In this document: positions 34,490-59,957 of the stretch, in pieces | Position numbering within the stretch: position 1 is the first letter of the stretch | How the letters are laid out: the number at the start of each line of letters is the position of its first letter | Source of the DNA: Deltaproteobacteria bacterium | GTDB taxonomy: Bacteria; Myxococcota_A; Polyangia; Polyangiales; Polyangiaceae | Length of the DNA stretch: 64,000 nucleotides | NCBI GenBank assembly: GCA_043747815.1 | Contig: JAYTOL010000037.1 | Span: 11,695-75,694 of the forward strand | Reading direction: 5' to 3' | Program-made: the position numbers and the translations under genes | The notes under the pieces: model-generated | What the model was told of the DNA's origin: nothing | The model's input: only the letters and a program-made list of their open reading frames with translations | Database searches by the model: none

Positions 34490-37252
34490 TCAATACAAGG
34501 TGATTTGCGTGGTGACGCCGAGCTCATAGTAGTCAAAGCCCGCGATGTTGCTGCTGGCACTGCTGGACGTTTGCCCGAGCGCCACGATCTTGAGAGAACG
34601 CCACGGCCTGACGCCGAGTCGCGCATTGAAGCGATAGGTCTTCTGTGACGATCGATCCTCGATCCACTGCACGCCGCCCGCGGCCAGGGCTCCGTAGATC
34701 AGAACGTCGTCGACATTGTCAGCGAGTATCTCGGCGAAAGCCTCGGTGTTCACCAGCTGCGACGGGCTGAAGTAACTGCGCACGCTGGTTTCACTAAACC
34801 CAAGGATTTGACCATTCAAGCCCGTCTTCACCACCGGTTGATTCACGAGGTCAGAATAGAGCGAGGCGAAAACCAGGCCGCGCTCATTGCCATCAGTCAA
34901 CTCCGCCACCGACAGGTTGGTGTAATAAGAGACCCAGGGGATGACGGGGCCGTAGGAGATCGCGGCCAGCGTATGCAGGCCTAAATGGTCATCCGCCATG
35001 CCAGCCGTGTAGGAGAAGGTGTCGGCTTGATATTCCAGGGCCAGTCTGTGGGCTATCCCGATCCGCAGGTCAGTTCGCGCCATTCCCCAGGGAGCAATAC
35101 CATCTGCTGCCAAGTCGGACCTGAACTGCGCTACTCCGACCGCCGCCGATACGGCCACGCGGCTCGTCCATTGGTGCGCTAATCCCAACCGCACACCCAC
35201 CACGTTAGCGCTTTCCCCCGTACCCTGGTTCACGACGCTGCGTAAGCTCGCGTCCGCAGTGGCGCGAAGATCTGGGTCCAGATCTGTCGAGCTGTTCACC
35301 CCGTACTCCCAAGCTTGATTGGTGCCGTTGTCCCACGAATGCATCAAACGAGCACTTGCGGCGGGCGCGTGCGAAAACTCTAGCCGGTCGAGAAAGCGCA
35401 CCGCGTCCGGCTGCCCCGGTTCGATTTCTAGCGCAGTTCTCGCCAGCCGAAAGGCGTCGCCCTCAAGGTTGAGCGCATGGCTGGCGTCAGCCAGTGACAA
35501 GACCGCCCCGAACGAGCGCTCCTGTTCGAGAGCCGCTTCTACTTGCTCATGCGCGAGAAAGAAGTTCCCTTGTCTCATCGATACCTGGGCCAAGCGCAGC
35601 TTCGGAGCCTGGCTGTCGGGTTGCAGCCGAGCGAAGTTGCGGTACTCGACAGCGGCCTGGTCGAGTTTGTCATCGAGCACTAGGGCATCGCCCAAGCCCA
35701 GCTGGACGTCGAACTTGGCCTCAGCTGGCTCGGTCTTCAGCAGCGCAATCGCACGCTTCGCCAGGGCAGCGTGATCTCGCTCGCCCGGTACCCGTGCTAA
35801 CGCGGACAGAAGTCGAGGCGACTTGGGATTTTGTTCGATGGCCCCGGTCAGTGTCAGCGCTGCCGCGTCGTCCCGACCTTGAATCTGCAATGCGGAGGCG
35901 AGGAGCAGAGCGCCCTCGATGGACCGGGCATCCAGGGCTAAGGCCTTTCGCGACAGGCGCTCACCGTCGAGCGGCTGGTGACCCTGCAGCGCCTTGTTGG
36001 CGCCGCGTACGTACATGTCCACACGCATGGCGTTTGCCTGTTTGCGGTCGGCGTCGGGTAGCCTCTCGAACGCGACGATGGCGACTTCTGCTTTCTGAAA
36101 GTCGTTCCCTCCCATCGCAGCCTGGGCGCTGCCCAGCCAGGCATCTTTGTTCTTTGGTTCGCGCTTGCTCAGGGCGCCGAAGGCGGCCGCCGCCCCCGGG
36201 AAATCGGCGACTGCCATCGACGAGTGCCCGAGCGCGAGCAGTAGGCAGCTCGGCCTTTCAGTAGGCTTTAGACTCAGTGCGACGTGTCGTGCGCCCTCTG
36301 GGTTTTTGTTTCCCAGCAACGACCAAGCCGCTCCGCACGCCAGGTCACCGAGTGCGGCGCGGACGTCTTCCGAGGTCGGGTCGCGACTGACGATAGCTCG
36401 CGCGCGCTCGAAGGCAGCCGGAAAGTCTTCCCATCGACTCTCAACCGTGAGCAGCAGTCGCTCGCGCTTCGAATCCTGGGGCCAGCGACTCTCGACGGCT
36501 TTGACGCCAGCGGCGCGTTCCTCTCGCGGCAGCCGCGGGAGTGCCTCCGTCAGGAGGGCCTCTGCCGCGCCCTGATCTTCCGGCCCGGACGACACGGAGC
36601 GCCACTCCGCAGCAGCAGCGATTCGATCGAGGGTCGGGACATTCGGCGATGCCAACAGGCGCTTACGAAGGCGCGCTTGGATGACCTTTGCTTCCGCATG
36701 GGTCCCAAATTCTAAAACGACGGCATCGATCGTGGATTTGGCGGAGGCGAGCTTGCCGAGAGCGTCCAGCACCTCGGCCAGCAGAATGCGAACGTCCAAC
36801 GAGCGCTGTATCTCTTCCGGCGCCGCTTTCAATACACGCTCCGCTCGTTCCGGTGACTTACCCCACAGCAGTGCCTTGGCCCGAAGCAGCACCACCTCCA
36901 GGGACACCGGAGCGGATTCTAACACGCTTGCAGCTTGCAGAGGCTGGTCTGCCGCGAGCAGCGCTTGAGCCACGTTCAGCCGCAGCTCCAAATCCAGCGG
37001 TGCATTCGCAAGCTCCGAGGTGAGATCCCGCAAATTGCGGTTCGTGGCCTCGTTGGCACCCGCTGCCGTGGCCATCAGTAGCGAACAAAAACCCGCGCCT
37101 ATCGCGCCGCGCACGATCGAGCTCCGTCGATGTGATGGGCGAGCCTGATCCCTCGGCGCCCGATTCACGGCGTCATGGGGGGCCATCGCATCACAGGAGC
37201 GATTTTTCGAGCAGCCAAGCTCTTGCGCAGGGGTCATCTGTCGCCTGTTCAT
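34490..37252 (-). CDS. TPR-repeat protein fused to a C-terminal outer-membrane beta-barrel (PelB/PgaA/BcsC-like architecture)
   Basis: The start was chosen at ATG 37252 because it overlaps the upstream GT4 stop (ATGA at 37249-37252). After a signal-like LLMATAAGA, the N-terminal about two thirds is helical TPR-like repeats. The C-terminal third has alternating-hydrophobic beta strands ending YYELGVTTQITLY. Confidence 0.6.
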   Translation of the reverse strand: MNRRQMTPAQELGCSKNRSCDAMAPHDAVNRAPRDQARPSHRRSSIVRGAIGAGFCSLLMATAAGANEATNRNLRDLTSELANAPLDLELRLNVAQALLAADQPLQAASVLESAPVSLEVVLLRAKALLWGKSPERAERVLKAAPEEIQRSLDVRILLAEVLDALGKLASAKSTIDAVVLEFGTHAEAKVIQARLRKRLLASPNVPTLDRIAAAAEWRSVSSGPEDQGAAEALLTEALPRLPREERAAGVKAVESRWPQDSKRERLLLTVESRWEDFPAAFERARAIVSRDPTSEDVRAALGDLACGAAWSLLGNKNPEGARHVALSLKPTERPSCLLLALGHSSMAVADFPGAAAAFGALSKREPKNKDAWLGSAQAAMGGNDFQKAEVAIVAFERLPDADRKQANAMRVDMYVRGANKALQGHQPLDGERLSRKALALDARSIEGALLLASALQIQGRDDAAALTLTGAIEQNPKSPRLLSALARVPGERDHAALAKRAIALLKTEPAEAKFDVQLGLGDALVLDDKLDQAAVEYRNFARLQPDSQAPKLRLAQVSMRQGNFFLAHEQVEAALEQERSFGAVLSLADASHALNLEGDAFRLARTALEIEPGQPDAVRFLDRLEFSHAPAASARLMHSWDNGTNQAWEYGVNSSTDLDPDLRATADASLRSVVNQGTGESANVVGVRLGLAHQWTSRVAVSAAVGVAQFRSDLAADGIAPWGMARTDLRIGIAHRLALEYQADTFSYTAGMADDHLGLHTLAAISYGPVIPWVSYYTNLSVAELTDGNERGLVFASLYSDLVNQPVVKTGLNGQILGFSETSVRSYFSPSQLVNTEAFAEILADNVDDVLIYGALAAGGVQWIEDRSSQKTYRFNARLGVRPWRSLKIVALGQTSSSASSNIAGFDYYELGVTTQITLY

Positions 37253-38538
37253 GGCCGCTCGCTCGAGCGCTGCGGCATAATGCTTGCCAGTCTCTGGCCG
37301 TCTGCTGCCGTGTGCAACCGAGCTACATCCACGGTCGGGACGAGTTGATCGAGCTCGTCGAGATACGCAGCAGCGACATCCCCCATCGTGAAGGCGCCTG
37401 ACGCGCGCAGATTGGCAAGCTCGAGACTGCGGCGATGGTTGGGGTCCACCAAGACCTTTGCCATGGCGTCGGCGAGGCTCTCGGCACACGTGGGCTCGAA
37501 GACTTCCCCGCGGTAGCCCTCGGCTCGAGTCAGCGCTGCCAAATCATCGATGTCCGGATATACGACGGCTCTCCCGACTTGACCGATCTGGTGCAAGACG
37601 CCAGAGCTGCCCGTCGTGGCGGTATACGGCAACACGATAACGGTGGCACTGGCGAGAGTATTTTCGACGTCGGATTCGGGAATGTATCCGAGGAAGCTCA
37701 CGCCCTGCACGTCGGAGAAACGCTGTCTCACGGACTCCAAATAACCCGGCGTATTGGGGCTATCCGTTCCGGCGATGACCACCTCGATGTCGTTGAAGCC
37801 GCGTTGGCGCAAGAGCACAGCCGCTTCGAGCAGCAGTTCGACCTTCTTATAGGTGCCGAATTTGCCGAATGCCAGCAGGCGTCGCGGGCCACTCGGTATC
37901 GGTAAAGGGGCGGAACGAGTCTCGCCGAAGCTGCCGTGTGGCACGTGCAGGATGTTGGTCCGTCCGTAGTTGCGCCGAAGCAGCGCGGCGTACGTCGGAA
38001 GGAGCACGCCGACCCGGCTCGAGTACAGCAAGACTCGCGTGAGCGAAGTGCCGATGAACATTGCTAGCCTCGCCAGCCAACGATTTTGAACAAGGCCGTT
38101 GGCGACTAAGTCGACGGTCTCGATCAGGTTGTGGAGGATCAACACCGTCGGAATCCCGAGGCCGCGCAGCGCTGGCGCGGCGAGCAGTCCCAAGGCGCTG
38201 GCGGCGCTTTTTTGTCCGAAGCTGCGGAAGTGTGAGTTGAAGATTACGCCGTCGAGGCCTTCACGCAGAGCGGCCCGAGCCACCTGATAGCCCGCACCGT
38301 AGCCGTCAAATTGCCAGCACCTTTCCACGGTGACGTTAGGGATATGCCTGACCAGCGCTGGCGGCTCGATGTGCTCAATCACGTCAGCCAACACGTGGAC
38401 ACGGCCCACTCGTGGGTCCTTGCTCAGCGCGGACACGAGGTGCAACCCGTACTCGTTGAGTGTCCCCCCGCTCGGTGGAAACGCAGTAACCACCCCGATG
38501 GCGAGTTTTCTGCGTTCGCCAGCCTTCAAGTTTGCCAT
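37249..38538 (-). CDS. GT-B fold glycosyltransferase (family 4/1-like)
   Basis: 429 aa. N-terminal IGVVTAFPPSGGTLNEYG. The C-terminal Rossmann half RLLAFGKFGTYKKVELLLEA...VIAGTD...VIVLPY is typical of group 1 glycosyltransferases. GAGGGG Shine-Dalgarno. Confidence 0.75.
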   Translation of the reverse strand: MANLKAGERRKLAIGVVTAFPPSGGTLNEYGLHLVSALSKDPRVGRVHVLADVIEHIEPPALVRHIPNVTVERCWQFDGYGAGYQVARAALREGLDGVIFNSHFRSFGQKSAASALGLLAAPALRGLGIPTVLILHNLIETVDLVANGLVQNRWLARLAMFIGTSLTRVLLYSSRVGVLLPTYAALLRRNYGRTNILHVPHGSFGETRSAPLPIPSGPRRLLAFGKFGTYKKVELLLEAAVLLRQRGFNDIEVVIAGTDSPNTPGYLESVRQRFSDVQGVSFLGYIPESDVENTLASATVIVLPYTATTGSSGVLHQIGQVGRAVVYPDIDDLAALTRAEGYRGEVFEPTCAESLADAMAKVLVDPNHRRSLELANLRASGAFTMGDVAAAYLDELDQLVPTVDVARLHTAADGQRLASIMPQRSSERP

Positions 38539-38656
38539 ATTGATTCCCCTCGGCGTCCGTTAAGACGCCAGCGATGCCGTTACCCCACGGGGTGAGCACT
38601 GAGTTAGGCTCATAGCGACCCCGGCCTCAGTGCTTCAGCTCCTGAGTGCGAGCCGA

Positions 38657-38678
38657 GGCTCCTGTTCTTCCAGGAGCC
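38657..38678. promoter_or_regulatory. Perfect 8-bp-stem hairpin/inverted repeat followed by an A7 tract, in a divergent promoter region
   Basis: GGCTCCTG-ttcttc-CAGGAGCC (38657-38678), then atcAAAAAAAgg. It lies between the divergent GT4 (-) and GT2 (+) genes. The geometry does not fit a terminator on either strand. Confidence 0.3.
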
Positions 38679-38895
38679 ATCAAAAAAAGGATCGGATCGG
38701 CACGCAGATGCTTGAGCGGGCGGCGGCGCTTTGGTCTGGCGTGAACGGCAATCCTGTACGTTCCGAGCGAGCGAAGGCGCGTGAGCGTCTTTCAGATGTC
38801 GACGACGCCCGATTCGGAGCAGATGTCGTTCAAGGTTCGTGCTCGCGGGTCGATCTTTCCTCTGTGCCGCCTACTACCGAGTTTTGGAGGAAATT

Positions 38896-39870
38896 TTGAA
38901 AGCCGACGATCTGCTAGTCATCCCCTGTTACAATGAAGAGAATCGATTGCCGCATGAGCTTGCGCTGAGCTTGCTTGCCGGCGGACGAATCGAGATTTTG
39001 CTAGTGAACGATGGCTCGACCGATCGAACGCGTGAGGTGATCGATGGGCTCGTCAAGGCTGGACAGGGGAGGATCCATGCGCTCCATATGGCAGAGAATT
39101 CTGGCAAGGCCGAAGCAGTCCGGCGCGGCCTCCTTTGGGGCGTGGAACAGGGCGCTCGATGCGTCGGCTACGCCGACGCCGATTTTGCAACACCACCCAA
39201 GGAGATCCTCAGACTTCTGGAGGCCATGGAAGCTCAAGGCTTGGGAGCGGTTCTGGGCTGTCGCGTCGCCCGCCTCGGCGCACAAGTCAATCGCAGGTTC
39301 TCCCGCCACCTGGTATCGCGCGTTTTTGCGAGCTTAGCCTCAGCGGTACTGGGCGTCTCCGTGTACGACACCCAGTGTGGCGCAAAGTGGTTTCGGGTCA
39401 ATCCCGCGCTCGAAGCCACGATTGCGGAGAAATTTTCCTCGCGCTGGGCCTTCGACGTGGAGCTTTTGGGGCGTTTGCTCGGGCGTTGGGGCAAGGGTCC
39501 ACGTCTCGATGACGACGACGTTCTCGAGATCCCCGTGCGGGCTTGGCGCGACGTTGGCGGATCGAAGGTTTCACTCAGCGGCATGTTGCGGGCCATGTCC
39601 GATATGTGCCGAATGGTCATCGTGTCCATGCGCTTGGGGCGCGACTACCCCAAGAGCCTCGTCAAAGTCTCGATCGGCGCGCGTTTGGCTCACCCCCGTA
39701 CGTCGTGGTCTTCACCCGTGGAGCTCGACGGGGGGGCTGAAAACGATACGCTGCCCCGGTCGCAGCTGATCGTCATCGGGTCGCACCAACCCGTGGCCCT
39801 GGGTCCGGACGCAGTTTCGACGGCGATCCCCGGCGCTCGGGGCCAACGTGGCGCCGTCGCAGGCCGTTGA
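38896..39870 (+). CDS. GT2 glycosyltransferase of the polyprenyl/dolichyl-phosphate sugar synthase type (DPG-synthase/GtrB-like)
   Basis: Motifs LLVIPCYNEENRL, LVNDGSTDRT, YADADFATP, DTQCGAKWF and RWAFDVELL. TTG 38896 is preceded by GGAGGAAA; the ORF opens at GTG 38839. The C-terminal ~100 aa are low complexity. Confidence 0.8.
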   Translation: MKADDLLVIPCYNEENRLPHELALSLLAGGRIEILLVNDGSTDRTREVIDGLVKAGQGRIHALHMAENSGKAEAVRRGLLWGVEQGARCVGYADADFATPPKEILRLLEAMEAQGLGAVLGCRVARLGAQVNRRFSRHLVSRVFASLASAVLGVSVYDTQCGAKWFRVNPALEATIAEKFSSRWAFDVELLGRLLGRWGKGPRLDDDDVLEIPVRAWRDVGGSKVSLSGMLRAMSDMCRMVIVSMRLGRDYPKSLVKVSIGARLAHPRTSWSSPVELDGGAENDTLPRSQLIVIGSHQPVALGPDAVSTAIPGARGQRGAVAGR

Positions 39871-39997
39871 CTAGGGAGCTGAAGGCGCCGCACCCTATTG
39901 TTCGCACTCGACGGGGACGTTTGAGCTGACACGATTACCCTCATGACTCGAGCTCGGGGCTGGACATCGGCTCCTAGCGAGTCACAGGTGTCACCCG

Positions 39998-41161
39998 GTG
40001 ATTAACCCCCTGCTCCCACTGTTCCTGGCCCTCACGGTGCTAGCGCCGTTGGTCATCTGGAGATGGGTGACGAGATGCTTGACCAGAGACATTCGTCATC
40101 GGGGCTGGATTAGGGGAGCGCTCTTCGGATTGGCCGCGTTGCATTGGCCAACCGGCTGGCTCACCTTGCATGGGCATGTCGGATGGGCCAGCCCGCTACA
40201 TGCTGTTGCTCTGGGCGCGTTGATCAGCATGAGTCTCGCTGCAATCCCGCTCGGTCTCGTGCAGTTCGCGAGTTGGCTGCGACGTTGGGCGATGCGGCCA
40301 ATTCGTCCGAATGCCGCTCCGCCGGAGCCTCGACGGCGTCAACTCTTGGAGGCTGGCGCTGGGGTTGCGGTCTTGAGCTTGACGGGCTCTGCGCTGGGTT
40401 GGGGCTTCATCAAAGGAAGACACGACTATGAGCTTTGTGAAGTTCCGGTGAGGATACCGGGACTCCCACGCGCGCTCGACGGCTACGTCATAACTCAGCT
40501 GAGCGACATTCACACGGGTCCCTTTGTCAACGAGGCGGAGCTGAACGTGAGCCTGTCGTTGGTGACCAGATCGAAGCCGGATCTGATTTGCGTTACGGGC
40601 GATCTCGTCGACGCCGAGGCGAGATGGGCTCCTTTGATCGCCGCTCGGCTTGGCGGACTCAAGAGCCGGGATGGGGTTGTGGCCGTGCTGGGTAACCATG
40701 ACCATTACGCCGGTTGGCAGTCAGTGGCGAGCGCGCTACGCGACGCGGGAGTCGAGCTCCTGCTGAACCAGGGTCGTGTCATTCGTCCCCGCGACGGCGG
40801 CGGCTTCGCGCTGCTCGGCGTCGATGATTTGTCGGCTATCGATTTCGGCGGGCGGGGGCCGGATCTGAATGGTGCGTTGGGCATGGTGCCTATCGACCTT
40901 CCTCGAATCCTGCTCTCACATCGACCGACGACGGTGGATCGATGGGCCGGGCAGGTAGCGCTTCAGCTCAGTGGACACACGCACGGTGGGCAAATTAACC
41001 CGGGCTCGCTCGCGGCCGATCTGTTGTTCAAATACGTCGCCGGTCGGTATGTGGTGGACGGAACTACGCTATACGTCAATCGAGGGTTGGGGACTGGAGG
41101 GCCTCCGTCACGCATCGGTGCCCGACCTGAGGTTACCCGTATAGTCCTGATCTCGGCCTGA
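39998..41161 (+). CDS. Membrane-anchored metallophosphoesterase (YkuE-like), copy 1
   Basis: Three to four N-terminal TM helices, then LSDIHTG, TGDLVD, LGNHDHY and GHTHGGQI. Confidence 0.85.
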   Translation: MINPLLPLFLALTVLAPLVIWRWVTRCLTRDIRHRGWIRGALFGLAALHWPTGWLTLHGHVGWASPLHAVALGALISMSLAAIPLGLVQFASWLRRWAMRPIRPNAAPPEPRRRQLLEAGAGVAVLSLTGSALGWGFIKGRHDYELCEVPVRIPGLPRALDGYVITQLSDIHTGPFVNEAELNVSLSLVTRSKPDLICVTGDLVDAEARWAPLIAARLGGLKSRDGVVAVLGNHDHYAGWQSVASALRDAGVELLLNQGRVIRPRDGGGFALLGVDDLSAIDFGGRGPDLNGALGMVPIDLPRILLSHRPTTVDRWAGQVALQLSGHTHGGQINPGSLAADLLFKYVAGRYVVDGTTLYVNRGLGTGGPPSRIGARPEVTRIVLISA

Positions 41162-41314
41162 TTCGCCGACGGTCTCCCGACGGGCGTGGGGCTCGGCCTG
41201 AACTGACTCCCGGCGTGCCTATCGCGGCCTGACACGGGTTCGCGCCGGGCGCACCGCTTGGACATTGGCTTGTGTGTGCCTATGCACCGCTGACCTGCTC
41301 GGCGCGTACGGCTT

Positions 41315-44300: not shown

Positions 44301-44731
44301 AGGTGTATGCGAAGGCCGTAGTGACCCGGCATGATCTGGCTCGCGACCTCACCGCACAAGATGTGAAAGTGGAACGCTCGAGCAATGGCTCGTGGCACGT
44401 CTCGGGCCGGTTGCTCAACATGGGAACCCGCGAGGCGCTCATCCCGCATGTGTTACTGACTTACTACGATAGCGCGCAGCAGGTTGTCTGGGTAGATCAT
44501 GCCTACGTACGCGATTCCGTGCGCCCGCAGCACAGCAAGGAGTTCGATGTCGTCGTCACGCCCTACCGCTCAGTCGAAGTCGTCCTCGACAATGGAGAAC
44601 TGTACGAGGACAACCTGAAGGCGGATCTCGAGTTCGACCCCAACTGGGCCGAACGCACGCCGCTGCCCGCCGAGCTCGGGTATGTGTCGTACAGAATCAG
44701 TGTGAACTATTTCATGGCCGCCCCCCAATGA
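41315..44731 (+). CDS. Giant polytopic membrane protein: GT-C-fold-like N-terminal half and a ~500-aa extracytoplasmic C-terminal half
   Basis: More than 10 predicted TM helices. The first loop after TM1 carries an acidic/aromatic motif (KDTYDAYVHIFFADHY...WEPRWYTGFPMTSYPPG), reminiscent of GT-C enzymes. An alternative ATG is at 41393. The family assignment is tentative. Confidence 0.45.
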   Translation: MIQQLRAFHSCGDADLEPLAFAEREPMRAVIKRYNPHVFVALALALAYHGALLFSGTFKDTYDAYVHIFFADHYARAWFDHWEPRWYTGFPMTSYPPGAQQSIALLSHLVGLETGFAIVALFAVLNCTLGIYRSSKLWVSDEAAGYAALLYVFASSVAETIHVFGQLPTLFSLGFLLNALPFVYRWVTEGKLKWLFTAWLLNAATTAGHHVTTLFGAVFFVAPVILAALVSELRTPLDDEPTQHPARVTARNLRPLLSRRLRRILPGLVRTAVYGPGLILALVLVVLPYWMYSKADPITQVSIPHASRDSFLENTSAGFVFWLVPYGLTVLLLPYVLYKGLSTRAWPMALSWALMVLLGTGGTTPLPRLILRGAFDILTLDRFTFWATIAQLPLLGELVASLRHGRLARYTREQLGEISWRLVQISLIVGYLLVSVFVANLTKYRRFQPSRLDFQPVVNFLDKDQHWRWRYLTLGLGDQMAWLSAQTRACSVDGNYHSARRLPELTTTPVERLEGAKYSGMPGIGSLQQFIAVPDKYNLKFIFSNDEFYDPLLFFSGWHRLQRLENGIMVWEREDIPPLPEILPRKEIPVYQRVLWGLVPMSALASASVAFCAPMWWPYMLWLLDREPGAGFSTKHHLRRRFWRVATSPFRPLWTATCAAAQRASLLRPLRASWSRLDHRLLAASALPASDESSAPRWQVWRDWAARFPRPHLVTPKAQHVRLALLTLCLALGGFAVDRHFRRQTQAPAAVVEQYYDDLDFRRFRAAFARLDPHTRPSYDQYLVELSVAGGIVASYGKLDSITQKLLTEEPERVSLIATTDWVTAVSAYRTNQWLVLWKREEGWFIEPPSFDLALAPDQFFRRGEVGWASAGRRRVSTETTAVGDILDRPELRILSARAVRQGGNYHVVGELINIDSDPADLTVTAFLDDANGKELTHYNAQEVMMHKLFPKEVTPFRIDFEGVAGASLQPDDALTNFKPGAFTPPVLERPVANFEVYAKAVVTRHDLARDLTAQDVKVERSSNGSWHVSGRLLNMGTREALIPHVLLTYYDSAQQVVWVDHAYVRDSVRPQHSKEFDVVVTPYRSVEVVLDNGELYEDNLKADLEFDPNWAERTPLPAELGYVSYRISVNYFMAAPQ

Positions 44732-45999
44732 GAGGTCGGCTCCGCGTTGCCTGCGCGTTGGCGATTTGCTGCGCCACGCTCGCGTTGGGGGGCGGCCTCT
44801 GGTGGCACCGCAGGCTTGTGGCGCCTGCGAACCCTAGCAGCGAAATCGTTGGTCTCGTGGTCGACGCGCCGGAAACTTTGATGGTGGGCGAGCCCCTGCG
44901 GGTCGCGCTTGCCGCAACGGGCAGCGCCGACGGATTGGTGACGCTCGCTTACGTCGGCATCGCCGGGCTCAAGCTGTATACGGCGCACTTGACGCGCGGC
45001 CGGGGGGGGGTCGTCATTCCGAGTTCCGATACCCGCCAATCGGGTACGGCCACGTTAATTGCTACGGCAGGTCGTGCGCGCGCGAGCAAGAGCGTCGAGC
45101 TGGAGCCGAGGCCACCTGTCGATCCGATCGTTGCGTTCGTGGGCGCTCGTTCCATCATCGCCGACGGGGGCCATTGGTGCATGGCAGTGGTCATCCCGCT
45201 GGATGAGCTGGGCAACGTCGTCGCAGAGGGCACCACCGTCGAGTTGAGCGTGGTTCACCCCGACAACGTCCTCGAACAAATCCGAACTCAGGTTCTCCAG
45301 CAGCTTGCCTGGGTGCGCATCTATTCGGGAACCTTGGCGGGCAGAAGCATCGTGACCGCTAGCAGTGGCGGGATGCACGGTCCCGAGGCGACGTTCGAAG
45401 AGGTGCCAGGGTGGCCGGTCCCGTTTGCGATCCGTGCCTCCGCGGTGGGCACGCCGGCAGATGGGCGTCAGCTCGTCACGTTGCGCACCGACATCGTCAA
45501 AGATGAAAACGGCAACCCCATGCTCGACGGCACGCTCATCACGTTCATGAGTCGCGCCGAAAGCGGCGGGTCCCGCTTCATTCCCACGTATACCATCGAC
45601 GGCATCGCCAAAGCCTCGCTTCAGGCGCCGCAGAGCCCGATGACTCTGAGTGTCGGGGCCGGTACTTATGGCACGGCATCGAGACTAATTCCTCTCGACT
45701 TCGAGAGTGGCCCTGCGGTTGGCGCATTTCCGGTTCAGATCAGCGTCGATCGTGCGGTGCAGTCGTTTAGCATGCGCGCAGGACCGCTCTTGGGATTGCT
45801 GCACCAGTTCGTGCCTGACGGCTTGTCGGTGTCGGGGGAGCTCACGAACGCCCTGGGGCAGCGGCTGCGCATCAACGCCGTGTCAGATGGTGGCTATGCA
45901 CGTGGGTTTGTCCGGCTCAGAACGCTCGAGCCGGGTGACTACAACCTCGACGTCGAGCTGGGCTCAGGGCACGGAACGACAACCTTCCACGTTGACTGA
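44728..45999 (+). CDS. Membrane-anchored protein with repeated bacterial Ig-like (Big) domains
   Basis: ATGA overlap with the upstream gene. N-terminal anchor VACALAICCATLALGGGLWW. Repeated ADG...V.V.V.D..GN.V..GT.V patterns. Confidence 0.5.
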   Translation: MRGRLRVACALAICCATLALGGGLWWHRRLVAPANPSSEIVGLVVDAPETLMVGEPLRVALAATGSADGLVTLAYVGIAGLKLYTAHLTRGRGGVVIPSSDTRQSGTATLIATAGRARASKSVELEPRPPVDPIVAFVGARSIIADGGHWCMAVVIPLDELGNVVAEGTTVELSVVHPDNVLEQIRTQVLQQLAWVRIYSGTLAGRSIVTASSGGMHGPEATFEEVPGWPVPFAIRASAVGTPADGRQLVTLRTDIVKDENGNPMLDGTLITFMSRAESGGSRFIPTYTIDGIAKASLQAPQSPMTLSVGAGTYGTASRLIPLDFESGPAVGAFPVQISVDRAVQSFSMRAGPLLGLLHQFVPDGLSVSGELTNALGQRLRINAVSDGGYARGFVRLRTLEPGDYNLDVELGSGHGTTTFHVD

Positions 46000-46010
46000 C
46001 GCGGCCAGGG

Positions 46011-47783
46011 ATGAGCAAGAACTATCTCAAGCTCATCCTTGGGGCTCTGCTGCTGGCGTTGGTCGGCGCAGGAGTTTGGGGTGCCCTGTCCGGCATGGCA
46101 GCGCTGATTTTATATTTCCAGACGGGCGCCGACCCCGCCGCCGCGCTCCATATCGTGCCGAACGTCCCCCCGGACCTGCACGTTCGGCTCAGCTGGCGAC
46201 CGGACCCACCGGACACGGGCCGCGCACTCGACCCAATGGCACGCAAGGGCGTCGAGTCATCATACCTGCGCGCGTGGCTGCAGTTGCATCTCGCGGCCAT
46301 GAAGCACGAGAACTACGGGCTGAAGACCTACTTTTCGGGCCCCGCCCTGGCCGCTCTGGAGCAGCCGTCCAACGCTGGCTGGCACATCGATGAAGTGGAC
46401 ACCGCGCATCAGCTCGAGCTCCATTTCTACTCTGCCGACGGAGCAATTATCTCATTTACGGACCATGGCGCCTGGGTCTCTCAACTGGCGCGTGCTGGCG
46501 CCGGCCTCGACGCCAAGAGCTCTGCTGGGGGCGATGCTCCGGCTTTCTACGGAGACTTTGTCGCCGACTACGACATTGTGATGTTCCTGGAGGATGGCAA
46601 TTGGCGCGTCCGGCATTGGGTCAGGCGCGCCGCACGCGATATCGAGGCTTCGCCGCCCGCGGCACCGCCGCTGGGAGCCGGCTTCGTCGTGCGTGAGGGC
46701 CAAACTCTCGCGTCAGACGGCCGAGACTACAAAGTCGCTGGCATCGACTACTACCCCAGGACTGCCCCGGGGGACGAGTTCTGGCCGGCGTACACTTCGA
46801 GCGAGACCGCAAGAGATTTCGCCTTGATGCAGCGCTTGGGAATCAACACCGTGCGCGTCGACGTCCCCTTCCAACAATTCGGTGGCCCCGCCGTAGACGA
46901 AGCGATGCTCGAACGCTTGGGAGATCTGCTCAGCCACGCGACCCAAGCCAATTTGAAGGTGATCGTCACGCTATTTGGTCACTTCTCTGACTATCAGGTG
47001 ATCCAGTGGCCCGCCGCCGATCGGCACTTGGAAGCCCTCTTGCGGCGATTTCACGAAGATCCAGCGATACTCGCGTGGGACCTGAAGAACGCGCCAGATG
47101 TGGACTACGCCGGCAATGGCAAGGAGTTGGTGAACGCGTGGCTCCGGCATGTCGCCCGCCTGGCGCGCAGCTGCGATTCGAATCACCTGTTAACCGTCGG
47201 ATGGGGTAGAGCAGCGGCCGCCGCCGACTTGTCGGACGTACTCGATATCGCCTCTTTTCGGCACTTCGAGTCAGCGGCCTCACTAGAGGCCGGCTACGCC
47301 GCGTTGAGGGCTCGAGTTGCCGCGCCGATTCTAATCTCGGCGTTTGGCCTTTCCACGTGGAACAGCTTCTTTTTTCCCGGGGGCCACACCGAACTGGAAC
47401 AAGCCAGCTATTATGCGGAAGTGCGTCGCGTGTTGCGCCGCGTGGGTGCCGTGGGCAGCGTGGCGTCGACTCTGCACGACTACGACCACGCTCCCAAAGC
47501 GCTGCCCGCCTGGCAGCCTTGGGTGACAGGGGCGATGCAAAATCTTGGCGTCGTCCGCAGAGATGGCACGCTGAAGCCCGCGGCGGCGCTGCTGCGTGAG
47601 GAGGCCGAGGTGCTGGTCGCGTCTGCGCCGGTGTGGGGTCGACTCTTTAAGCCATTTTGGTTGGTCGTGGCGTTGCTCGCGCTCGGGTGCGGAGTCGTTG
47701 CAGTTCGGGGGTACGCTCGACGGCGCAGAACCCGCGCAGAGTGTGAGGTGTCGGGAGGTCGTGCTGGCACGAGCAAGCCCTGA
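46011..47783 (+). CDS. GH5-like (clan GH-A TIM barrel) protein with both catalytic glutamates replaced by alanine; N- and C-terminal TM anchors
   Basis: It is a paralog of the 59958..61832 product. WDLKNAPD stands where the paralog has WDLKNEPD, and ILISAFG where it has VVLGEFG. HDY is also degenerate (RHF). Both Ala codons are GCG, a single-nucleotide change from GAG. Confidence 0.65.
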   Translation: MSKNYLKLILGALLLALVGAGVWGALSGMAALILYFQTGADPAAALHIVPNVPPDLHVRLSWRPDPPDTGRALDPMARKGVESSYLRAWLQLHLAAMKHENYGLKTYFSGPALAALEQPSNAGWHIDEVDTAHQLELHFYSADGAIISFTDHGAWVSQLARAGAGLDAKSSAGGDAPAFYGDFVADYDIVMFLEDGNWRVRHWVRRAARDIEASPPAAPPLGAGFVVREGQTLASDGRDYKVAGIDYYPRTAPGDEFWPAYTSSETARDFALMQRLGINTVRVDVPFQQFGGPAVDEAMLERLGDLLSHATQANLKVIVTLFGHFSDYQVIQWPAADRHLEALLRRFHEDPAILAWDLKNAPDVDYAGNGKELVNAWLRHVARLARSCDSNHLLTVGWGRAAAAADLSDVLDIASFRHFESAASLEAGYAALRARVAAPILISAFGLSTWNSFFFPGGHTELEQASYYAEVRRVLRRVGAVGSVASTLHDYDHAPKALPAWQPWVTGAMQNLGVVRRDGTLKPAAALLREEAEVLVASAPVWGRLFKPFWLVVALLALGCGVVAVRGYARRRRTRAECEVSGGRAGTSKP

Positions 47784-47917
47784 CAGCGCGTTTGGCCTAA
47801 AGGTATGCTTCTCGAGGACGTAACGCTGAGGCAGGCTCGCGAGAACGCGGTCGATGTGTCCGCCTGGGACCTCGCGCTGCCCGCAGCTGCCACTTCCTGC
47901 TACCCGGGGACACGGAG

Positions 47918-48943
47918 ATGAAGAACCTGCGCAACAACGGCGCCTCAGCCGCGCATATCGTGCCCAATCGCGAGCCTCACGGTGCGTCTCCAAAACTCGC
48001 GTCGCCAGCGGACGAATGGCGCGGCGACTCCATCAGTGCACGGCAGTTGTGGGCGCAGAATCGCTTCTGGATGGAGACGCAAAACCTTGCCTCGAAGCGC
48101 CATGGTGGACGCCGTCAGCAGCATCATCGAGCATTGCTGTTCGCCATGAAGACGTTTGAGTGGGGCCTGAAGTGCGTCGGGCAGTATCGCCGAGGTGTGG
48201 AGAATGCGCGCGACATAACAGTGCGGGAGCTCGACCTTGCCCTCCCGGGTCTGCCCGCTCATTTCGACGGGTTCACCATCCTTCACATTTCGGACCCACA
48301 CCTGGATGGAATGCCCGGTTTGGAGTTCGAGGTGCTGCGTCTCCTCCAGCATCGACGCTTTGACATTTGCGCGCTCACCGGGGACTACCGCAATGCGATC
48401 CACGGATCCATCCGAGCAACCATGCAAGGGCTGGAGAGGCTCGTGCACGGAATTCAAACCCGGGAGGGTTTTGTAGGAGTCCTGGGCAATCACGACGACT
48501 GTCACATGGTTGCACCGATGGAGGCGATGGGGATCCGCGTGTTGATCAACGAGGCGTGGGTGCTCGAGCGGAATGGTCAAATGCTGCAGTTCGTCGGTAC
48601 GGACGACGTGCACTACTACTACACTGACCAAGCCCTGCTCGCCCTGGAGCGGGCCTGCCGGGGCTTCACCATCGCGCTCGTGCACTCACCCGAGCTGTGT
48701 GACGCTGCGGCGGAGGCCGGCGTGTCGCTCTACCTGTGTGGGCATACTCACGCCGGGCAAGTGTGCTTACCCGGCGGCATTCCCTTGGTCAAGCACTTGC
48801 GTTCTGGGCGAGCCTACTACCGCGGGCACTGGCAGCACCGAGGCATGCAGGGGATCACTAGTGCAGGCATGGGCACCTCGGGGATTCCGGTACGTTTCAA
48901 TACACAGGGAGAGGTGATGATCTTGACGCTGAGAAGGAAGTGA
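47918..48943 (+). CDS. Metallophosphoesterase (YkuE-like), copy 2
   Basis: Motifs ILHISDPHLDG, TGDY, LGNHDD and GHTHAGQV. No TM helix is evident. The start is uncertain (in-frame ATG at 47918, 48071 or 48146; none has a good Shine-Dalgarno). Confidence 0.8.
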   Translation: MKNLRNNGASAAHIVPNREPHGASPKLASPADEWRGDSISARQLWAQNRFWMETQNLASKRHGGRRQQHHRALLFAMKTFEWGLKCVGQYRRGVENARDITVRELDLALPGLPAHFDGFTILHISDPHLDGMPGLEFEVLRLLQHRRFDICALTGDYRNAIHGSIRATMQGLERLVHGIQTREGFVGVLGNHDDCHMVAPMEAMGIRVLINEAWVLERNGQMLQFVGTDDVHYYYTDQALLALERACRGFTIALVHSPELCDAAAEAGVSLYLCGHTHAGQVCLPGGIPLVKHLRSGRAYYRGHWQHRGMQGITSAGMGTSGIPVRFNTQGEVMILTLRRK

Positions 48944-49141
48944 TTGGAGCGCCACTGCCCGTTCTCACGCCGCCAAGTCGACGCGAGGGCTCCCGATGGC
49001 GCTCGGGGGCGGGGGAAGGGCGAGGAGGAACGACTCCGAACTAAAGTTTTCGACGATGGGCGCCGTCAATTTGCCCCGAGGCTCGTCGCGCGGACGGTAG
49101 TCATGGTGCTCGAGTGACTCACGCTCGATTGGGAGGGGAAC

Positions 49142-52100
49142 ATGGGCGGAGTTATTCGGGGTACCGTTGGTGCGTTTGCATTTCGAGCGCTGGCTGTCTC
49201 CACAGTGCTCGGATTGAGTGCCTGCGGTGATGACGACTCGACGTCCGTCGGCAACGGTGGCTCCGGAGGTCGAGGCGGAGCGGGCGGGGGGGACGACGCG
49301 GGCTCCATGACCGACGACAGTACGACTGTCGCCGAAGACCCCCTGGTAGGTACGGGCGGGCAAGTAGGTACGGGCGAATCGGGCGGGCAAGGGGGGGCAC
49401 CCTCGATCGGAGAGTCCGGTGCGAGTGGCGAAGCAGGCGCGGGCGGTGGCGAAGGCGGAGCGACCTCCGAAACTGGAGGAACGGGCGGAAATAGTGACGC
49501 TGGTACGACGGATGCTTCGATTCCAGGCGAATCGGGCGGTGCCGCCGGGCAAGGCGAATCGGGTGGTGCCGCCGGGCAAGGCGAATCAGCCGGTGCCGCC
49601 GGCGACCCTGTGGACGCTGGCCCACAGGTCATCTGCGCGCCCAACATTGAGGACTCGACCGCAACCATCCAAGAGTTCGACGCACCTCCAGGCAGCGCCT
49701 GCGTCCCTGGAACGCAGGGAACGTCGTATGCGTGTGACGTGGAAACCGAACAAGTCGCTTACCCTGGTCCACAGATCTTGGCTGGGGCTCACCTGGACCC
49801 TCCTGCGTACCTGCGGTTGCTGACACCAACCAGCGGAGGTGGGGGGGTTCAGACCTCAATTGCCTTCGAGTCGACGTCGCCCGCCCGCCCCGTCATCGTC
49901 GCCGACTTTGATTTCCGCGTCACACCGGAAAAGCTGTTCCGAGCCGACGGCTTTGGGTTTGCCTTGTTGGATGCCCAAACGTTCCCAGCGGGACCTGTGG
50001 GCTCTACCCCTCCGTGTTTTTCCGCTGAAGAGCCGAACTTCGACAATTCGGTCGGCGTCGGCTTCGACGTATACAGGAACAGCAACGATCTGGGCGACGA
50101 CGATCTCCGCGTCAACTACTCCAACGCCGTGTCCGTTCACTATGTCCCGGCGGGAACGGCATTTCCGAACTGCGACCTAGCCAAGGTCGCGTCGACCCAG
50201 GTCGAGGTCGGGCGGGTGGTCCATACGCTGGGTGTGCTGGACACCGGGCTCGAGCTCGTGAGCACGACGTGGAATCACGCCAGAGTCATTCTGGAGCAGC
50301 AGGCGGACCATGCGCTGGTCACCCTCCGGCTTACCGGAGAGTACGGCCAAACCTCGACGGTCGTCGATCGGGTCGAAATACCCGTCCCGGTGCCCTATTC
50401 CCCCCGGGTTTGGTTTGGTGCACGCGCAGGTGGGGAGAGCTCGACCTACGACATCGCCAATGTTCGCGTCCATTCACTGCAAGCGGCTGAATCGGGCGTC
50501 GCGTTTTCGAAGCGCGAGTGGAGAGTCGACGAAGCCGGATCGTTTGTCGACCTCGAGATCGTGCGCGAGGGCGCGTCGAGCTCTTCCTTGGTCGTTCAGT
50601 ATTTCACCCAGGATCGGACGGCGGTCGCCGGGCAGGACTACGAGACGCGGTGTGGTGAGGTGAGATTCGGCCCGGGAGAGTCCACCAAGAGCATTCGCAT
50701 ACACGTCCTCGATGATCAGCTCGACGAGTCGTCGACCACCTCAGTGGGTGGCTCCAGCGAACCCATCCCTTTGCCGGATGCCGAGAGCTTCACCGTTTCG
50801 TTGTCGACCAGTGACCCGAATGGCCGGATCTTTGGTCCATCCGTGGCCAACGTGACGATCGTCGATGACGAAGCTGCACGCAGTTCTGGCAGCTGGGGCC
50901 CGCTCTTGCCGTCCGGAATCGTCGCCGTGCATGCCGCCCTCTTGCCGACGGGGAAGCTATTGTTACTCGATCGGCTGGGAAACTTGGTGCTCTCGCAGTT
51001 GGGTGGGCAGAATGTGTCAATCGGGGGCCCGGGCTACGATGCCTTCTGCAATGGGGCGGCCTTTCTGGAGGATGGCAAGCTCCTCGTCAGCGGCGGTCAC
51101 GATGCGCCCACGGGGGCGGCCCTCATGGACGGCGTCGGCGTCGTGAACAACAGCCTGTTCGATCCAGTGGAGAATTCCTGGTTGCCGCTGCCCGAGATGA
51201 ATGAGGGGCGCTGGTACCCGACCGTCACGACTCTTTCGGATGGGACAGCATTACTCCTATCGGGTAGCTACGAGCAGGATTTCGAGAAGAATCCATTGCC
51301 TCAGGTCTATCTCCCCGACCAAGGGATCTATCGCGACCTCGTGGCGGCGGAGGCCCAACCCGAGAACGATCTCGCGCTCGGCTACGATCTGTATCCCCGC
51401 GTGTTTGCTCTTCCGAACGCAAAAGTGATCAAAGTGGGACCGGATCCGGACACGTGGATCCTCGACACGAACGGTGATGGGGGGTGGGTCGAAGGCCCTA
51501 CCACCATCGAGCAGGGCGGTCGAATCTATGGTCCGGCGGTCCTGCGCAATCATCAGGTGATGTTGACAGGAGGGGGGAGCCTCGACGACGCCGCTGCGCC
51601 AACCGATTCGACGGAGGAGCTCGACCTCGACACGCTCGCAGGCGAACCCGCCTGGGCTGCTCGTCCGCCCTTGTTCTTCGCGCGGCGCCAACACAACGCT
51701 ACGGTGTTGCCGGACGGACGAGTCTTGGTAACGAACGGCTGCCAGGGGCCCGGCTTCAGCGATATGAGCACCGCCGTGTTGCCCGCGGAGATGTTTACCA
51801 ACGGTGACTGGCAGATAATGCCGGCGTCGAGGGTACCGCGCTGCTACCATTCAGTCGCGCTCCTCCTCGCAGACGGAAGCATTCTGATCGGCGGTGGGGG
51901 TCAGGGGGCGGCTCTGCCGAGTGCTCAGAATAATTTCGAGATCTATTATCCTGATTACTTCTATCGGCCTCGCCCCAGCCTCAGCGGCGTGCCCGCGGAG
52001 GTGCACTACGGCGCCGCCTTCAACGTGACTACTTCGGCACCACCGAGTCGTATCTCCGTGGTTCGGCTGGGGGCCGTCACCCATTCGTTCGATCAAAATC

Positions 52101-52255
52101 AGCGATTCGCGGAGCTGCCTTTCACTCCAATAGCCCGCGGCGCCAGCGTCACTGCTCCGAACGATGGTTGGTTGCCTCCGGGTCACTATGTGCTGTTCGT
52201 GCTCGACCAGGCCGGCGTGCCGTCGGTAGGTGAACTGATTCGTCTGACACTCTGA
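49142..52255 (+). CDS. Lipoprotein: Gly-rich tether + L-type-lectin-like domain + Calx-beta + galactose/glyoxal-oxidase-type copper radical oxidase + C-terminal Ig-like domain
   Basis: GGGAGG Shine-Dalgarno. Lipobox VLGLSAC|GDDD. Lectin-like RADGFGFALLD. Calx-beta AVAGQDYE..GESTKSIRIHVLDDQLDE. Kelch blades and RCYHSVALLLADGSILIGGGG, which matches the Tyr-His copper ligands of galactose oxidase. C-terminal PPGHYVLFVLDQAGVPSVGELIRL. Confidence 0.8.
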   Translation: MGGVIRGTVGAFAFRALAVSTVLGLSACGDDDSTSVGNGGSGGRGGAGGGDDAGSMTDDSTTVAEDPLVGTGGQVGTGESGGQGGAPSIGESGASGEAGAGGGEGGATSETGGTGGNSDAGTTDASIPGESGGAAGQGESGGAAGQGESAGAAGDPVDAGPQVICAPNIEDSTATIQEFDAPPGSACVPGTQGTSYACDVETEQVAYPGPQILAGAHLDPPAYLRLLTPTSGGGGVQTSIAFESTSPARPVIVADFDFRVTPEKLFRADGFGFALLDAQTFPAGPVGSTPPCFSAEEPNFDNSVGVGFDVYRNSNDLGDDDLRVNYSNAVSVHYVPAGTAFPNCDLAKVASTQVEVGRVVHTLGVLDTGLELVSTTWNHARVILEQQADHALVTLRLTGEYGQTSTVVDRVEIPVPVPYSPRVWFGARAGGESSTYDIANVRVHSLQAAESGVAFSKREWRVDEAGSFVDLEIVREGASSSSLVVQYFTQDRTAVAGQDYETRCGEVRFGPGESTKSIRIHVLDDQLDESSTTSVGGSSEPIPLPDAESFTVSLSTSDPNGRIFGPSVANVTIVDDEAARSSGSWGPLLPSGIVAVHAALLPTGKLLLLDRLGNLVLSQLGGQNVSIGGPGYDAFCNGAAFLEDGKLLVSGGHDAPTGAALMDGVGVVNNSLFDPVENSWLPLPEMNEGRWYPTVTTLSDGTALLLSGSYEQDFEKNPLPQVYLPDQGIYRDLVAAEAQPENDLALGYDLYPRVFALPNAKVIKVGPDPDTWILDTNGDGGWVEGPTTIEQGGRIYGPAVLRNHQVMLTGGGSLDDAAAPTDSTEELDLDTLAGEPAWAARPPLFFARRQHNATVLPDGRVLVTNGCQGPGFSDMSTAVLPAEMFTNGDWQIMPASRVPRCYHSVALLLADGSILIGGGGQGAALPSAQNNFEIYYPDYFYRPRPSLSGVPAEVHYGAAFNVTTSAPPSRISVVRLGAVTHSFDQNQRFAELPFTPIARGASVTAPNDGWLPPGHYVLFVLDQAGVPSVGELIRLTL
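49526..49603 (+). repeat. 27-bp in-frame tandem repeat (~2.9 copies) encoding GESGGAAGQ
   Basis: ggcgaatcgggcggtgccgccgggcaa | ggcgaatcgggtggtgccgccgggcaa | ggcgaatcagccggtgccgccggc, read directly from the sequence. Confidence 0.9.
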
Positions 52256-59878: not shown

Positions 59879-59957
59879 GCGAGCCGCCGCGCAGCACGGC
59901 AGGAATGTGTCGAGCCCGGTTCAAAAATGGCGGAATGGGAGCAGGAGGACCGTGCCG

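Follow-up and report, generated by a model that had tools for sequence, protein, structure and literature searches.

A conserved gene set around a GT-C-fold membrane protein in a Polyangiaceae genome and its candidate role in envelope-glycan assembly and export

Do the nine neighbouring genes at positions 34490-52255 of a 64,000-nucleotide stretch of Polyangiaceae DNA (GenBank assembly GCA_043747815.1, contig JAYTOL010000037.1, positions 11,695 to 75,694; hereafter the window) form one pathway, and which of them belong to it? A preliminary description, made from the sequence alone, had read them as a composite envelope-glycan locus that fits none of the known polysaccharide systems. All nine genes are present where that description placed them, and most of its family calls are backed by Pfam and NCBIfam (Table 1). 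Our comparison with related loci divides them. Co-conservation holds for the genes of a GT4 glycosyltransferase, a GT2 glycosyltransferase, a very large membrane protein of predicted GT-C fold, an Ig-like protein with weak Big-domain matches (the Big protein), a GH5-like protein and, in diderms, a TPR-barrel protein, whereas it fails for an oxidase and two metallophosphoesterases. We lean towards the view that the conserved part serves to assemble and export an envelope glycan, with the GT-C enzyme at its centre.

Conservation of the gene set in other bacteria

We scanned one genome per GTDB species with the GT-C protein as query and examined the best 80 loci. A relative of the protein occurs in at least 540 species, and the best 80 loci belong to Chloroflexota, Actinomycetota (Acidimicrobiia, Actinoplanes and Microbacterium) and marine Flavobacteriaceae; a metagenome scan with the GT-C protein alone as query yielded five short loci only. 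The homologues, more than 2300 in number, are all unnamed or annotated as 'hypothetical'; of those with a named source, the Chloroflexota ones are closest.

All proteins of the window were compared with the related loci, and co-occurrence was counted, within 10 kb on each side, for the 47 loci that have at least 8 kb of flanking sequence on either side; open reading frames (ORFs) were clustered from the non-overlapping longest ones. In the 14 Flavobacteriaceae loci, the genes for Big, GH5-like, GT4, GT2 and TPR-barrel proteins and for a Wzx/MOP-like membrane protein were each found 14 times. All 18 loci of Chloroflexota contain the Big and the GH5-like gene, accompanied by GT4 in 10, the Wzx/MOP-like gene in 11 and GT2 in nine, and among the 15 loci of Actinomycetota the corresponding numbers are 14 for Big, 13 for GH5, 10 for GT4, 11 for Wzx/MOP-like and 12 for GT2. 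The TPR-barrel gene was found in none of the loci of these two phyla. The Big gene comes after the GT-C gene almost without exception (46 of the 47 fully flanked loci).

Closer relatives were recovered on contigs from a search with the barrel domain. Four loci (L095, L096, L098/L099 and L100) carry the same system, with proteins 39-65% identical to those of the window (39-62% in L096). The L098 genes for GT2, GT-C, Big and GH5-like proteins follow one another in one direction and those for the additional membrane protein, GT4 and the TPR-barrel protein in the other, so that this layout differs from that of the window by one extra gene between GT2 and GT4 and by the lack of a metallophosphoesterase. 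The GT-C, Big and GH5-like proteins of the window are, respectively, 60-68%, 43-48% and 46-53% identical to the versions of Chloroflexia, with GT4 and GT2 only 29-47% identical to versions outside the clade. The higher identity of the trio fits either slow evolution or horizontal movement of these three genes. Phosphomannomutase/phosphoglucomutase (PMM/PGM) genes adjoin the system in L096 (1506-2888) and L100 (8027-9511), and an NTP_transferase/GMPPB-like gene does so in the metagenomic relative L090 (18496-19611), a hint that the donor may derive from Man-1-P or Glc-1-P. No O-antigen, teichoic-acid or capsule genes were consistently adjacent in the loci examined.

Components of the conserved set

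The 1138-residue protein at the centre of the set is predicted, from its structural model, to have a GT-C fold, which would place it in Pfam clan CL0111. An N-terminal module of many transmembrane (TM) helices is followed by a conserved extracytoplasmic region, two more TM helices and C-terminal beta-sandwich domains. The AlphaFold2 model has a mean pLDDT of 63 overall and of 70-90 in the membrane module, and its top Foldseek matches in the PDB are all STT3/AglB catalytic subunits (E ~1e-4, probability 1.0; target TM-score 0.27-0.38). This likeness to STT3 lies at the level of the fold only, as there is no STT3 Pfam match and no WWD (WWDYG-type) motif in the family consensus. Four residues, D63, H67, D72 and H73, are invariant in 12 sequences of 49-67% identity, and D63 and D72 lie 8-17 residues past the helix 36-55 (TM1). 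The catalytic Asp of GT-C enzymes is located shortly after TM1, in the first extracytoplasmic loop (PMC11127046), and the two invariant acidic residues therefore stand where one would expect it. The window protein retains every residue that is invariant in the family. It has no match in Pfam even at E<=10. The model PF10131 (PTPS_related), which belongs to the Pfam GT-C clan and has a cut-off of 26.4 bits, is marginally matched by two relatives, P0104 (28.2 bits) and P0113 (26.1 bits), and not by the window protein itself.

The Big protein is a bitopic protein with a single membrane span, whose weak Pfam matches are Big_1/Invasin_D3-like. It is the probable extracytoplasmic partner of the GT-C protein. 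The ATGA overlap of the two genes, noted in the preliminary description together with a second one between GT4 and the TPR gene, is indeed seen in the sequence, as is the second; the GT-C/Big overlap is reproduced by gene calls made for independent contigs and is met again in other phyla (L004, L082, L096 and L098). The GT4/TPR overlap holds only if the TPR gene starts at the ATG at 37252.

By its sequence, GT4 is a cytoplasmic glycosyltransferase of a distinct and highly conserved subfamily, marked by the motifs GSSGVLHQ and FGKFGTYKK, whose conservation was checked in 47 sequences. Orthologues of 38-61% identity are encoded near the GT-C gene in three phyla, and PimA provides the sole PDB sequence matches (E 5.6e-5). 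GT2 resembles the polyprenyl-phosphate-sugar synthases, the type to which it had originally been assigned: its seven PDB sequence matches are all to GtrB, ArnC or DPMS, and it is 26% identical to E. coli ArnC over 239 residues (E 5e-14). The assignment thus stands by similarity, with relatives of this type only. The conserved motifs are PxYNEE, DAD and DTQCG[FA]K. No TM helices were found in GT2, including the C-terminal ones of GtrB and ArnC, and a match to the PgaC model (51.6 bits against a cut-off of 422) is confined to the N-terminal GT2 core. The motifs of both glycosyltransferases are intact in the window.

For the TPR protein, a model built by AlphaFold2 from 34 homologues (pLDDT 89.2) places a TPR superhelix at residues 63-627 and, behind it, 16 beta-strands at residues 631-918. 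The best PDB match found by Foldseek is the E. coli cellulose exporter BcsC (9b8a, E 1.9e-11), the remaining top matches being TPR-only proteins. These results agree with the outer-membrane barrel that had been proposed for the C-terminus, and the protein is a candidate BcsC-like outer-membrane exporter on the strength of this model. One orthologue (L082) has weak PgaA_barrel and OMP_b-brl matches, and weak TPR_Slam matches occur in 12 of 13 orthologues. A word-indexed search with the whole protein returned only the protein itself, whereas an exhaustive search with the barrel domain alone gave a small family of 197 clusters, six of them 42-52% identical to the barrel domain of the window. Orthologues, with alignments that extend beyond the repeats across the barrel domain, are encoded in the four closer relatives as in all of the Flavobacteriaceae loci. 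The gene may start at another codon than the ATG at 37252: the public gene call P0124 (874 residues) begins at a GTG 46 codons downstream, right before a canonical signal peptide, and residues 1-65 of the model have a pLDDT below 50, so that the region 37114-37252 is ambiguous.

A sixth core gene is found in the relatives and encodes a multi-pass membrane protein of about 420 residues, present in 42 related loci and placed between GT2 and GT4 in the four closer relatives. It is probably a flippase of the MOP/Wzx type, judging from its sequence. The family has no Pfam or NCBIfam match on scanning and its profile no PDB sequence match, yet hhalign aligns the profile in register with E. coli WzxC over 252 columns (E 1.4e-3) and with RfbX at E 0.012, as against E 0.64 for a Wzy control, and the member in L098 has a precomputed match to Polysacc_synt_3 (PF13440). 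Within the 64-kb window, a search of all six frames with a hidden Markov model (HMM) of the family gave nothing better than E 2, and the spacer between GT4 and GT2 measures 300 bp only. The lack of Wzx, listed by the preliminary description among the features of the system, is thus correct for the window and a peculiarity of it, as the relatives have a co-conserved MOP/Wzx-like gene.

The GH5-like protein is anchored by N- and C-terminal TM helices. The profile of its family is nearest to GH5 endo-beta-1,4-mannanases (1qno, E 7e-13), and orthologues have weak matches to PF26410 (GH5_mannosidase). Active enzymes of this kind (retaining glycosidases of GH5, clan GH-A, with a (beta/alpha)8 domain) carry an acid/base Glu in NEP and a nucleophile Glu. 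The window copy had been described as a GH5 that lacks both catalytic Glu, which is borne out by its sequence: NEP is changed to NAP and EFG to SAFG, with Ala at both positions. This is not a property of the family, since 51 of the 57 orthologues retain NEP and E[FY]G, but a derived state within the clade, where L096 has likewise lost both catalytic residues and L098 the acid/base one. One or both Glu have been lost as well in L038 and L050 (Actinoplanes) and in L039, L066, L051 and L052 (Actinomycetota/Acidimicrobiia), apparently independently of the window clade. Three lineages within the clade have kept degenerate copies, with 40-42% identity, and this retention suggests a non-catalytic role; the window copy probably serves as a binding or scaffold module. 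The lost hydrolase activity may be supplied by a paralogue with intact motifs encoded 12 kb downstream.

Genes without a conserved link and the wider neighbourhood

The preliminary description had included in the pathway an oxidative modification of the glycan as well as both metallophosphoesterases. We found neither the oxidase gene nor either metallophosphoesterase gene in any of the 47 fully flanked loci or in the four closer relatives. That description had itself named a lack of co-conservation as the finding that would speak against a common pathway, and this is what we observe for these three genes, which are adjacent genes without a conserved link and should not be assumed to be pathway members.

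The oxidase has the sequence characters of an AA5_2-type copper radical oxidase, with Kelch and E-set Pfam domains and all five radical-copper residues (the Cys of FCNG, the Tyr of GRWY, the Tyr and His of CYHS and the His of VTHS) kept in an alignment to galactose oxidase (9g8h, E 4e-41). Such residues make up the Cys-Tyr cofactor pair and the Tyr/His/His copper ligands of this type, which has a 7-bladed Kelch propeller and a C-terminal E-set domain. The lipobox of the window oxidase is LSAC. It is closer to galactose oxidase than to GlxA, whose NCBIfam model gives 158.7 bits against a cut-off of 800, and the lectin domain proposed for residues ~170-450 has no Pfam match even at E<=1. Only 12 homologues are detectable, with distant ones in Sorangium/Polyangium, and the two nearest on usable contigs (40-44% identity) are encoded among unrelated genes. 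The heavy-metal RND pump genes are convergent with the oxidase gene, and a link of the oxidase to copper handling is conceivable; the pump is likewise present in none of the 47 fully flanked loci.

The first metallophosphoesterase carries a YaeI/LpxG-like domain, a Tat-like motif (RRRQLL) and, at its N-terminus, about four TM helices. No homologue was found in more than 90 related loci. Its gene was inserted between GT2 and GT-C in this lineage specifically and is no part of the conserved system, although, lying inside the operon, it may still have been recruited in the window lineage. The second metallophosphoesterase has no TM segment and is absent from all related loci; a promoter-like site, by consensus match only, precedes its gene at 47780-47809.

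At 31330-34377, outside the segment 34490-52255, lies the gene for a secreted protein of about 1015 residues with Ca-binding-like DxDxDG repeats and a C-terminal tail of a Cys, a hydrophobic helix and RRRR. By eye, this tail resembles a MYXO-CTERM-type sorting signal, for which no NCBIfam detection was obtained at E<=1, and the protein has no match in Pfam or NCBIfam. Over 982 residues (window 31375-34302) it is 53% identical to a 1024-residue protein encoded just before GT4 in L096, and partial homologues adjoin the TPR-barrel gene in Flavobacteriaceae loci. No such protein was found in L095, L098 and L100; among the diderm versions it is an accessory that varies.

Downstream of the gene for this secreted protein is a gene for a DedA/VTT-family protein that reaches 262.6 bits on the DedA model of NCBIfam (cut-off 236) and is UptA-like (E 1.6e-16), and a DedA protein of 52% identity is encoded directly after the GH5-like gene in L090 (17621-18283). 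It is a candidate polyprenyl-phosphate recycler or scramblase whose tie to the system is tentative. Further out, gene pairs of DUF1552 and DUF1587/1588/1592/1595 occur beside the system in the window and again in L098 (20519-22625), which suggests that the two share related genomic backgrounds. Within the window, these DUF neighbours, the tail of the secreted protein and the distant Sorangium/Polyangium matches of the oxidase are the clues that tentatively point to Myxococcota. An origin of the locus as a genomic island was considered on the grounds of composition and rejected, its GC content of 61-64% being matched by equally low values in other parts of the window.

Table 1. Genes of the locus and of its surroundings in the 64,000-nucleotide window
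Feature	Position	Strand	Family matches and remarks
DUF1552 (HXXSHH) + DUF1587/1588/1592/1595 gene pair	26016-29032	minus	
DedA/VTT-family membrane protein	30282-30944	minus	Pfam VTT_dom, E 7e-22
Secreted protein, ~1015 residues	31330-34377	minus	Signal peptide; start at 34377 inferred from the signal peptide
TPR-rich protein	34490-37252	minus	TPR families (Pfam/NCBIfam)
GT4	37249-38538	minus	Glycos_transf_1, E 7e-14
GT2	38839-39870	plus	PF00535, E 5e-24
First metallophosphoesterase, YaeI/LpxG-like	39998-41161	plus	Pfam/NCBIfam
Membrane protein of predicted GT-C fold, 1138 residues	41315-44731	plus	No match in Pfam
Bitopic Ig-like protein (Big_1/Invasin_D3-like)	44728-45999	plus	Weak matches only
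GH5-like protein	46011-47783	plus	Weak Cellulase match, E 1.4e-5
Second metallophosphoesterase	47918-48943	plus	Metallophos
Copper-radical oxidase lipoprotein	49142-52255	plus	Calx-beta + Glyoxal_oxid_N/Kelch + GO-like E-set
CusA/CzcA-type heavy-metal RND pump + adaptor with heavy-metal-binding domain	52434-56671	minus	Convergent with the oxidase
GH31 + CBM20 alpha-glucosidase-like gene	56903-59878		Directly before the GH5-like paralogue
GH5-like paralogue, intact and unanchored	59847-61832	plus	Motifs WDLKNEPDL and VLGEFG

Proposed pathway, rival explanations and known systems

From the gene content, the folds, the motifs and the co-conservation we infer a sequence of enzymatic steps and the nature of the sugar. 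At the cytoplasmic face of the membrane, GT2 would load a hexose onto polyprenyl phosphate, and GT4 would extend the lipid-linked sugar or prime an acceptor. In the relatives, the MOP/Wzx-like protein would flip the lipid-linked sugar to the outer face, where the GT-C enzyme and its translationally coupled Ig-like partner could transfer or polymerise sugar units. The membrane-anchored GH5 beta-glycanase might trim or release the chain and, in diderms, the BcsC-like protein with TPR and 16-strand barrel would take the product through the outer membrane. Hints that the sugar may be mannose or glucose come from the PimA relatives of GT4, the mannanase-like GH5 profile and the PMM/PGM or GMPP-like neighbours in three loci. 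The window copy of the system is remodelled, with no flippase gene at the locus, a dead GH5-like protein and a metallophosphoesterase inserted between GT2 and GT-C. Less probably, and we advance it tentatively, the conserved core would represent an unrecognised class of exopolysaccharide (EPS) pathway, present in at least 540 species of Chloroflexota, Actinomycetota, Bacteroidota and the window lineage, in which a GT-C polymerase outside the membrane uses lipid-linked donors and the polymer leaves through a TPR-barrel.

Several observations weigh against this interpretation. The GT-C model is of moderate quality, given its mean pLDDT, and omits its most conserved extracytoplasmic region (residues 450-587); hhalign found no similarity between the GT-C profile and E. 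coli ArnT (E 0.44), and the sequence profile matched no PDB chain. The flippase assignment is based on weak profile similarity, and ~40% of the monoderm loci have no gene for GT4, GT2 and the flippase within a distance of 10 kb. Enzymes of clan GH-A cut beta-glycosides, and a GT-C enzyme that inverts a beta-linked polyprenyl-phosphate sugar gives an alpha-linkage, so that the substrate of the GH5 protein may not be the product of the GT-C enzyme. Moreover, as the window lacks both the flippase and the GH5 activity, the function of its copy is less certain than that of the relatives.

Among the rival explanations, glycosylation of a protein is unlikely in our opinion, even if part of the evidence speaks for it. 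An oligosaccharyltransferase (OST)-like GT-C enzyme would place an oligosaccharide linked to polyprenyl phosphate, in the style of AglJ/AglB, on the Big protein or on the ~1000-residue secreted protein, with export through a Slam-like barrel. The exclusively STT3/AglB top matches of the GT-C model, the weak matches of GT2 to AglJ and to haloarchaeal Dol-P-hexose transferase, the ATGA overlap of GT-C and Big across phyla, the recurrent weak TPR_Slam matches and the combination of a MOP-type flippase with no initiating phosphoglycosyltransferase all fit this scheme, but the missing STT3 Pfam match and WWDYG-type motif do not, and the 16-strand barrel finds its best match in a polysaccharide exporter, the conserved endo-glycanase points to a polymer and the proposed secreted substrate is absent from three of the four closer relatives. 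We regard as distinctly improbable a pathway that takes in the entire 18 kb, metallophosphoesterases and oxidase included, and makes an oxidised glycan in the manner of CslA-GlxA-CslZ. The genes are adjacent, those from GT2 through the oxidase share a strand, the first metallophosphoesterase gene lies between GT2 and GT-C and very likely shares their transcript, the oxidase combines intact radical-copper residues with a lipobox and Calx-beta, and GlxA with CslA is a known precedent. These points are outweighed by the absence of the three genes from every flanked locus and closer relative, by the unrelated contexts of the oxidase homologues, by a GlxA score of 159 bits where 800 would be needed, and by the gaps of 135 and 199 bp and the promoter-like site ahead of the second metallophosphoesterase.

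A variant of the favoured envelope-glycan system, to which we give a small chance, would make a lipoglycan of the lipomannan type: a PimA-like GT4 primes a glycolipid, GT2 acts as polyprenyl-phosphate-mannose synthase and the GT-C enzyme elongates the chain outside, as in the well-known logic of PimA, Ppm1 and MptA. The PimA matches of GT4, the beta-mannanases nearest to the GH5 profile together with the PF26410 matches of the orthologues, and the PMM/PGM and GMPP-like neighbours in some loci would fit. Nevertheless, the PimA matches are weak, a BcsC-like exporter and a MOP flippase are foreign to known lipomannan pathways, and an enzyme resembling beta-mannanases would not cleave alpha-mannan. 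Least probable of all seems to us the notion that the window copy is a decaying, non-functional remnant. It could account for the flippase gene that is missing from the window and present in all four closer relatives, for the loss of both catalytic Glu in the GH5-like protein and for the foreign gene inserted between GT2 and GT-C. However, all ORFs are intact, the GT-C protein keeps all its invariant residues and GT4 and GT2 their motifs, the degenerate GH5-like protein has been maintained in three lineages in a way that indicates selection, and another part of the genome could encode the flippase, which must be the case for those Chloroflexota loci that have the trio only.

If the envelope-glycan reading is correct, the locus would exemplify a new route to a surface glycan that joins two logics around an unclassified GT-C family, present in hundreds of species, among them Acidimicrobiia, marine Flavobacteriaceae and the filamentous Chloroflexota known from activated sludge. 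Its characterisation would yield a further GT-C family of the kind classified in CAZy and possibly a new polymer, and the repeated loss of Glu from a retained GH5 partner would constitute a natural experiment on the non-catalytic roles of glycanases.

Bacterial surface glycans are usually made by one of four routes, which depend on Wzx/Wzy, an ABC transporter, a synthase or a sucrase. The earlier statement that the set as a whole fits no characterised EPS or lipopolysaccharide (LPS) pathway has held up, with nothing corresponding to it in Pfam, NCBIfam, the PDB or the open-access literature that we searched. In that literature (open-access text, with searches on PF10131, on GT-C together with EPS or TPR, and on GT-C or OST in Chloroflexi), we found no description of the gene set; the wps and gsf EPS clusters of Actinoplanes are different systems (PMC13390465).

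By analogy, the closest known systems appear to be those of three-component extracytoplasmic glycosylation (GtrA/GtrB/Gtr-type, ArnC/ArnEF/ArnT and CsbB/GtcA/YfhO), and the nearest of them that of Citrobacter youngae, which consists of a polyprenyl-phosphate-ribose synthase, a MATE flippase and a GT136 enzyme of the GT-C type with a C-terminal beta-rich binding domain (PMC11127046). Common to both would be a polyprenyl-phosphate-sugar-synthase-like enzyme, a candidate flippase of the MOP superfamily (here in the relatives only) and a large GT-C protein in which a conserved Asp follows TM1 and the C-terminal domain is rich in beta-structure. In contrast, the GT-C protein of the window family has roughly double the size and resembles neither ArnT nor any PDB chain in sequence, GT2 is without TM helices, and the set includes in addition a dedicated GT4, an Ig-like protein coupled to the GT-C protein, a GH5 glycanase with membrane anchors and, in diderms, an exporter that resembles BcsC. 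Nor does the conserved set lie within an O-antigen or teichoic-acid locus that supplies the acceptor.

The other side of the set recalls the synthase-dependent EPS systems (Bcs, Pga, Alg and Pel), with which the TPR protein shares the design of TPR followed by a barrel of 16-18 strands. The likeness is greatest to BcsA-BcsB-BcsZ-BcsC, where a membrane glycosyltransferase, an anchored beta-sandwich partner, an endo-glycanase and a TPR protein with a 16-strand barrel likewise occur together. Unlike Bcs, the present set contains neither a processive GT2 synthase that forms its own channel nor a PilZ/c-di-GMP module (Pfam scans found neither a PilZ nor a GGDEF-I-site protein at the locus); its membrane enzyme is predicted to be a GT-C protein, which would use lipid-linked donors outside the membrane, and its glycanase is GH5-like where that of Bcs is GH8. 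The likeness to PelB and PelF, drawn in the preliminary description, holds for the architecture, that is, for a cytoplasmic GT4 gene adjoining the gene of an outer-membrane protein with TPR and barrel. It goes no further than this, as the best match of the barrel is BcsC, PelA, PelD, PelE and PelG are missing, the GT4 subfamily also occurs in barrel-less monoderms, and no Pel model was among the NCBIfam and Pfam matches of GT4 or the TPR protein at E<=0.01, on the assumption that the library contains such models.

More remote are three other systems. The analogy to Streptomyces cslA-glxA-cslZ, also put forward at the outset, had to be abandoned: a GT2, a radical copper oxidase and a glycanase-like gene do share one neighbourhood, but GT2 resembles the soluble GtrB/ArnC/DPMS type and not a membrane-embedded processive synthase such as CslA/BcsA, the oxidase is nearer to galactose oxidase and not co-conserved, and the glycanase is GH5-like and dead in the window. 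For the Wzx/Wzy pathway, neither the window locus nor the Pfam-annotated relatives contain an initiating phosphoglycosyltransferase, Wzy or PCP/OPX proteins, and the Wzx-like protein occurs in the relatives only. The mycobacterial pathways of lipomannan and arabinan (PimA, Ppm1, MptA/B, Emb and AftD) also combine a cytoplasmic GT4 and a polyprenyl-phosphate-sugar synthase with a polymerising extracytoplasmic GT-C enzyme, and AftD has large soluble C-terminal domains as well; they differ in their taxa and in that GT87, GT53 and AftD have no sequence tie to the present family, and a MOP flippase, a GH5 and an outer-membrane exporter are found here in addition. Taken together, these comparisons make the system, which is apparently undescribed, look like one in which three-component lipid-linked glycosylation is joined to a Bcs-like, synthase-type export.

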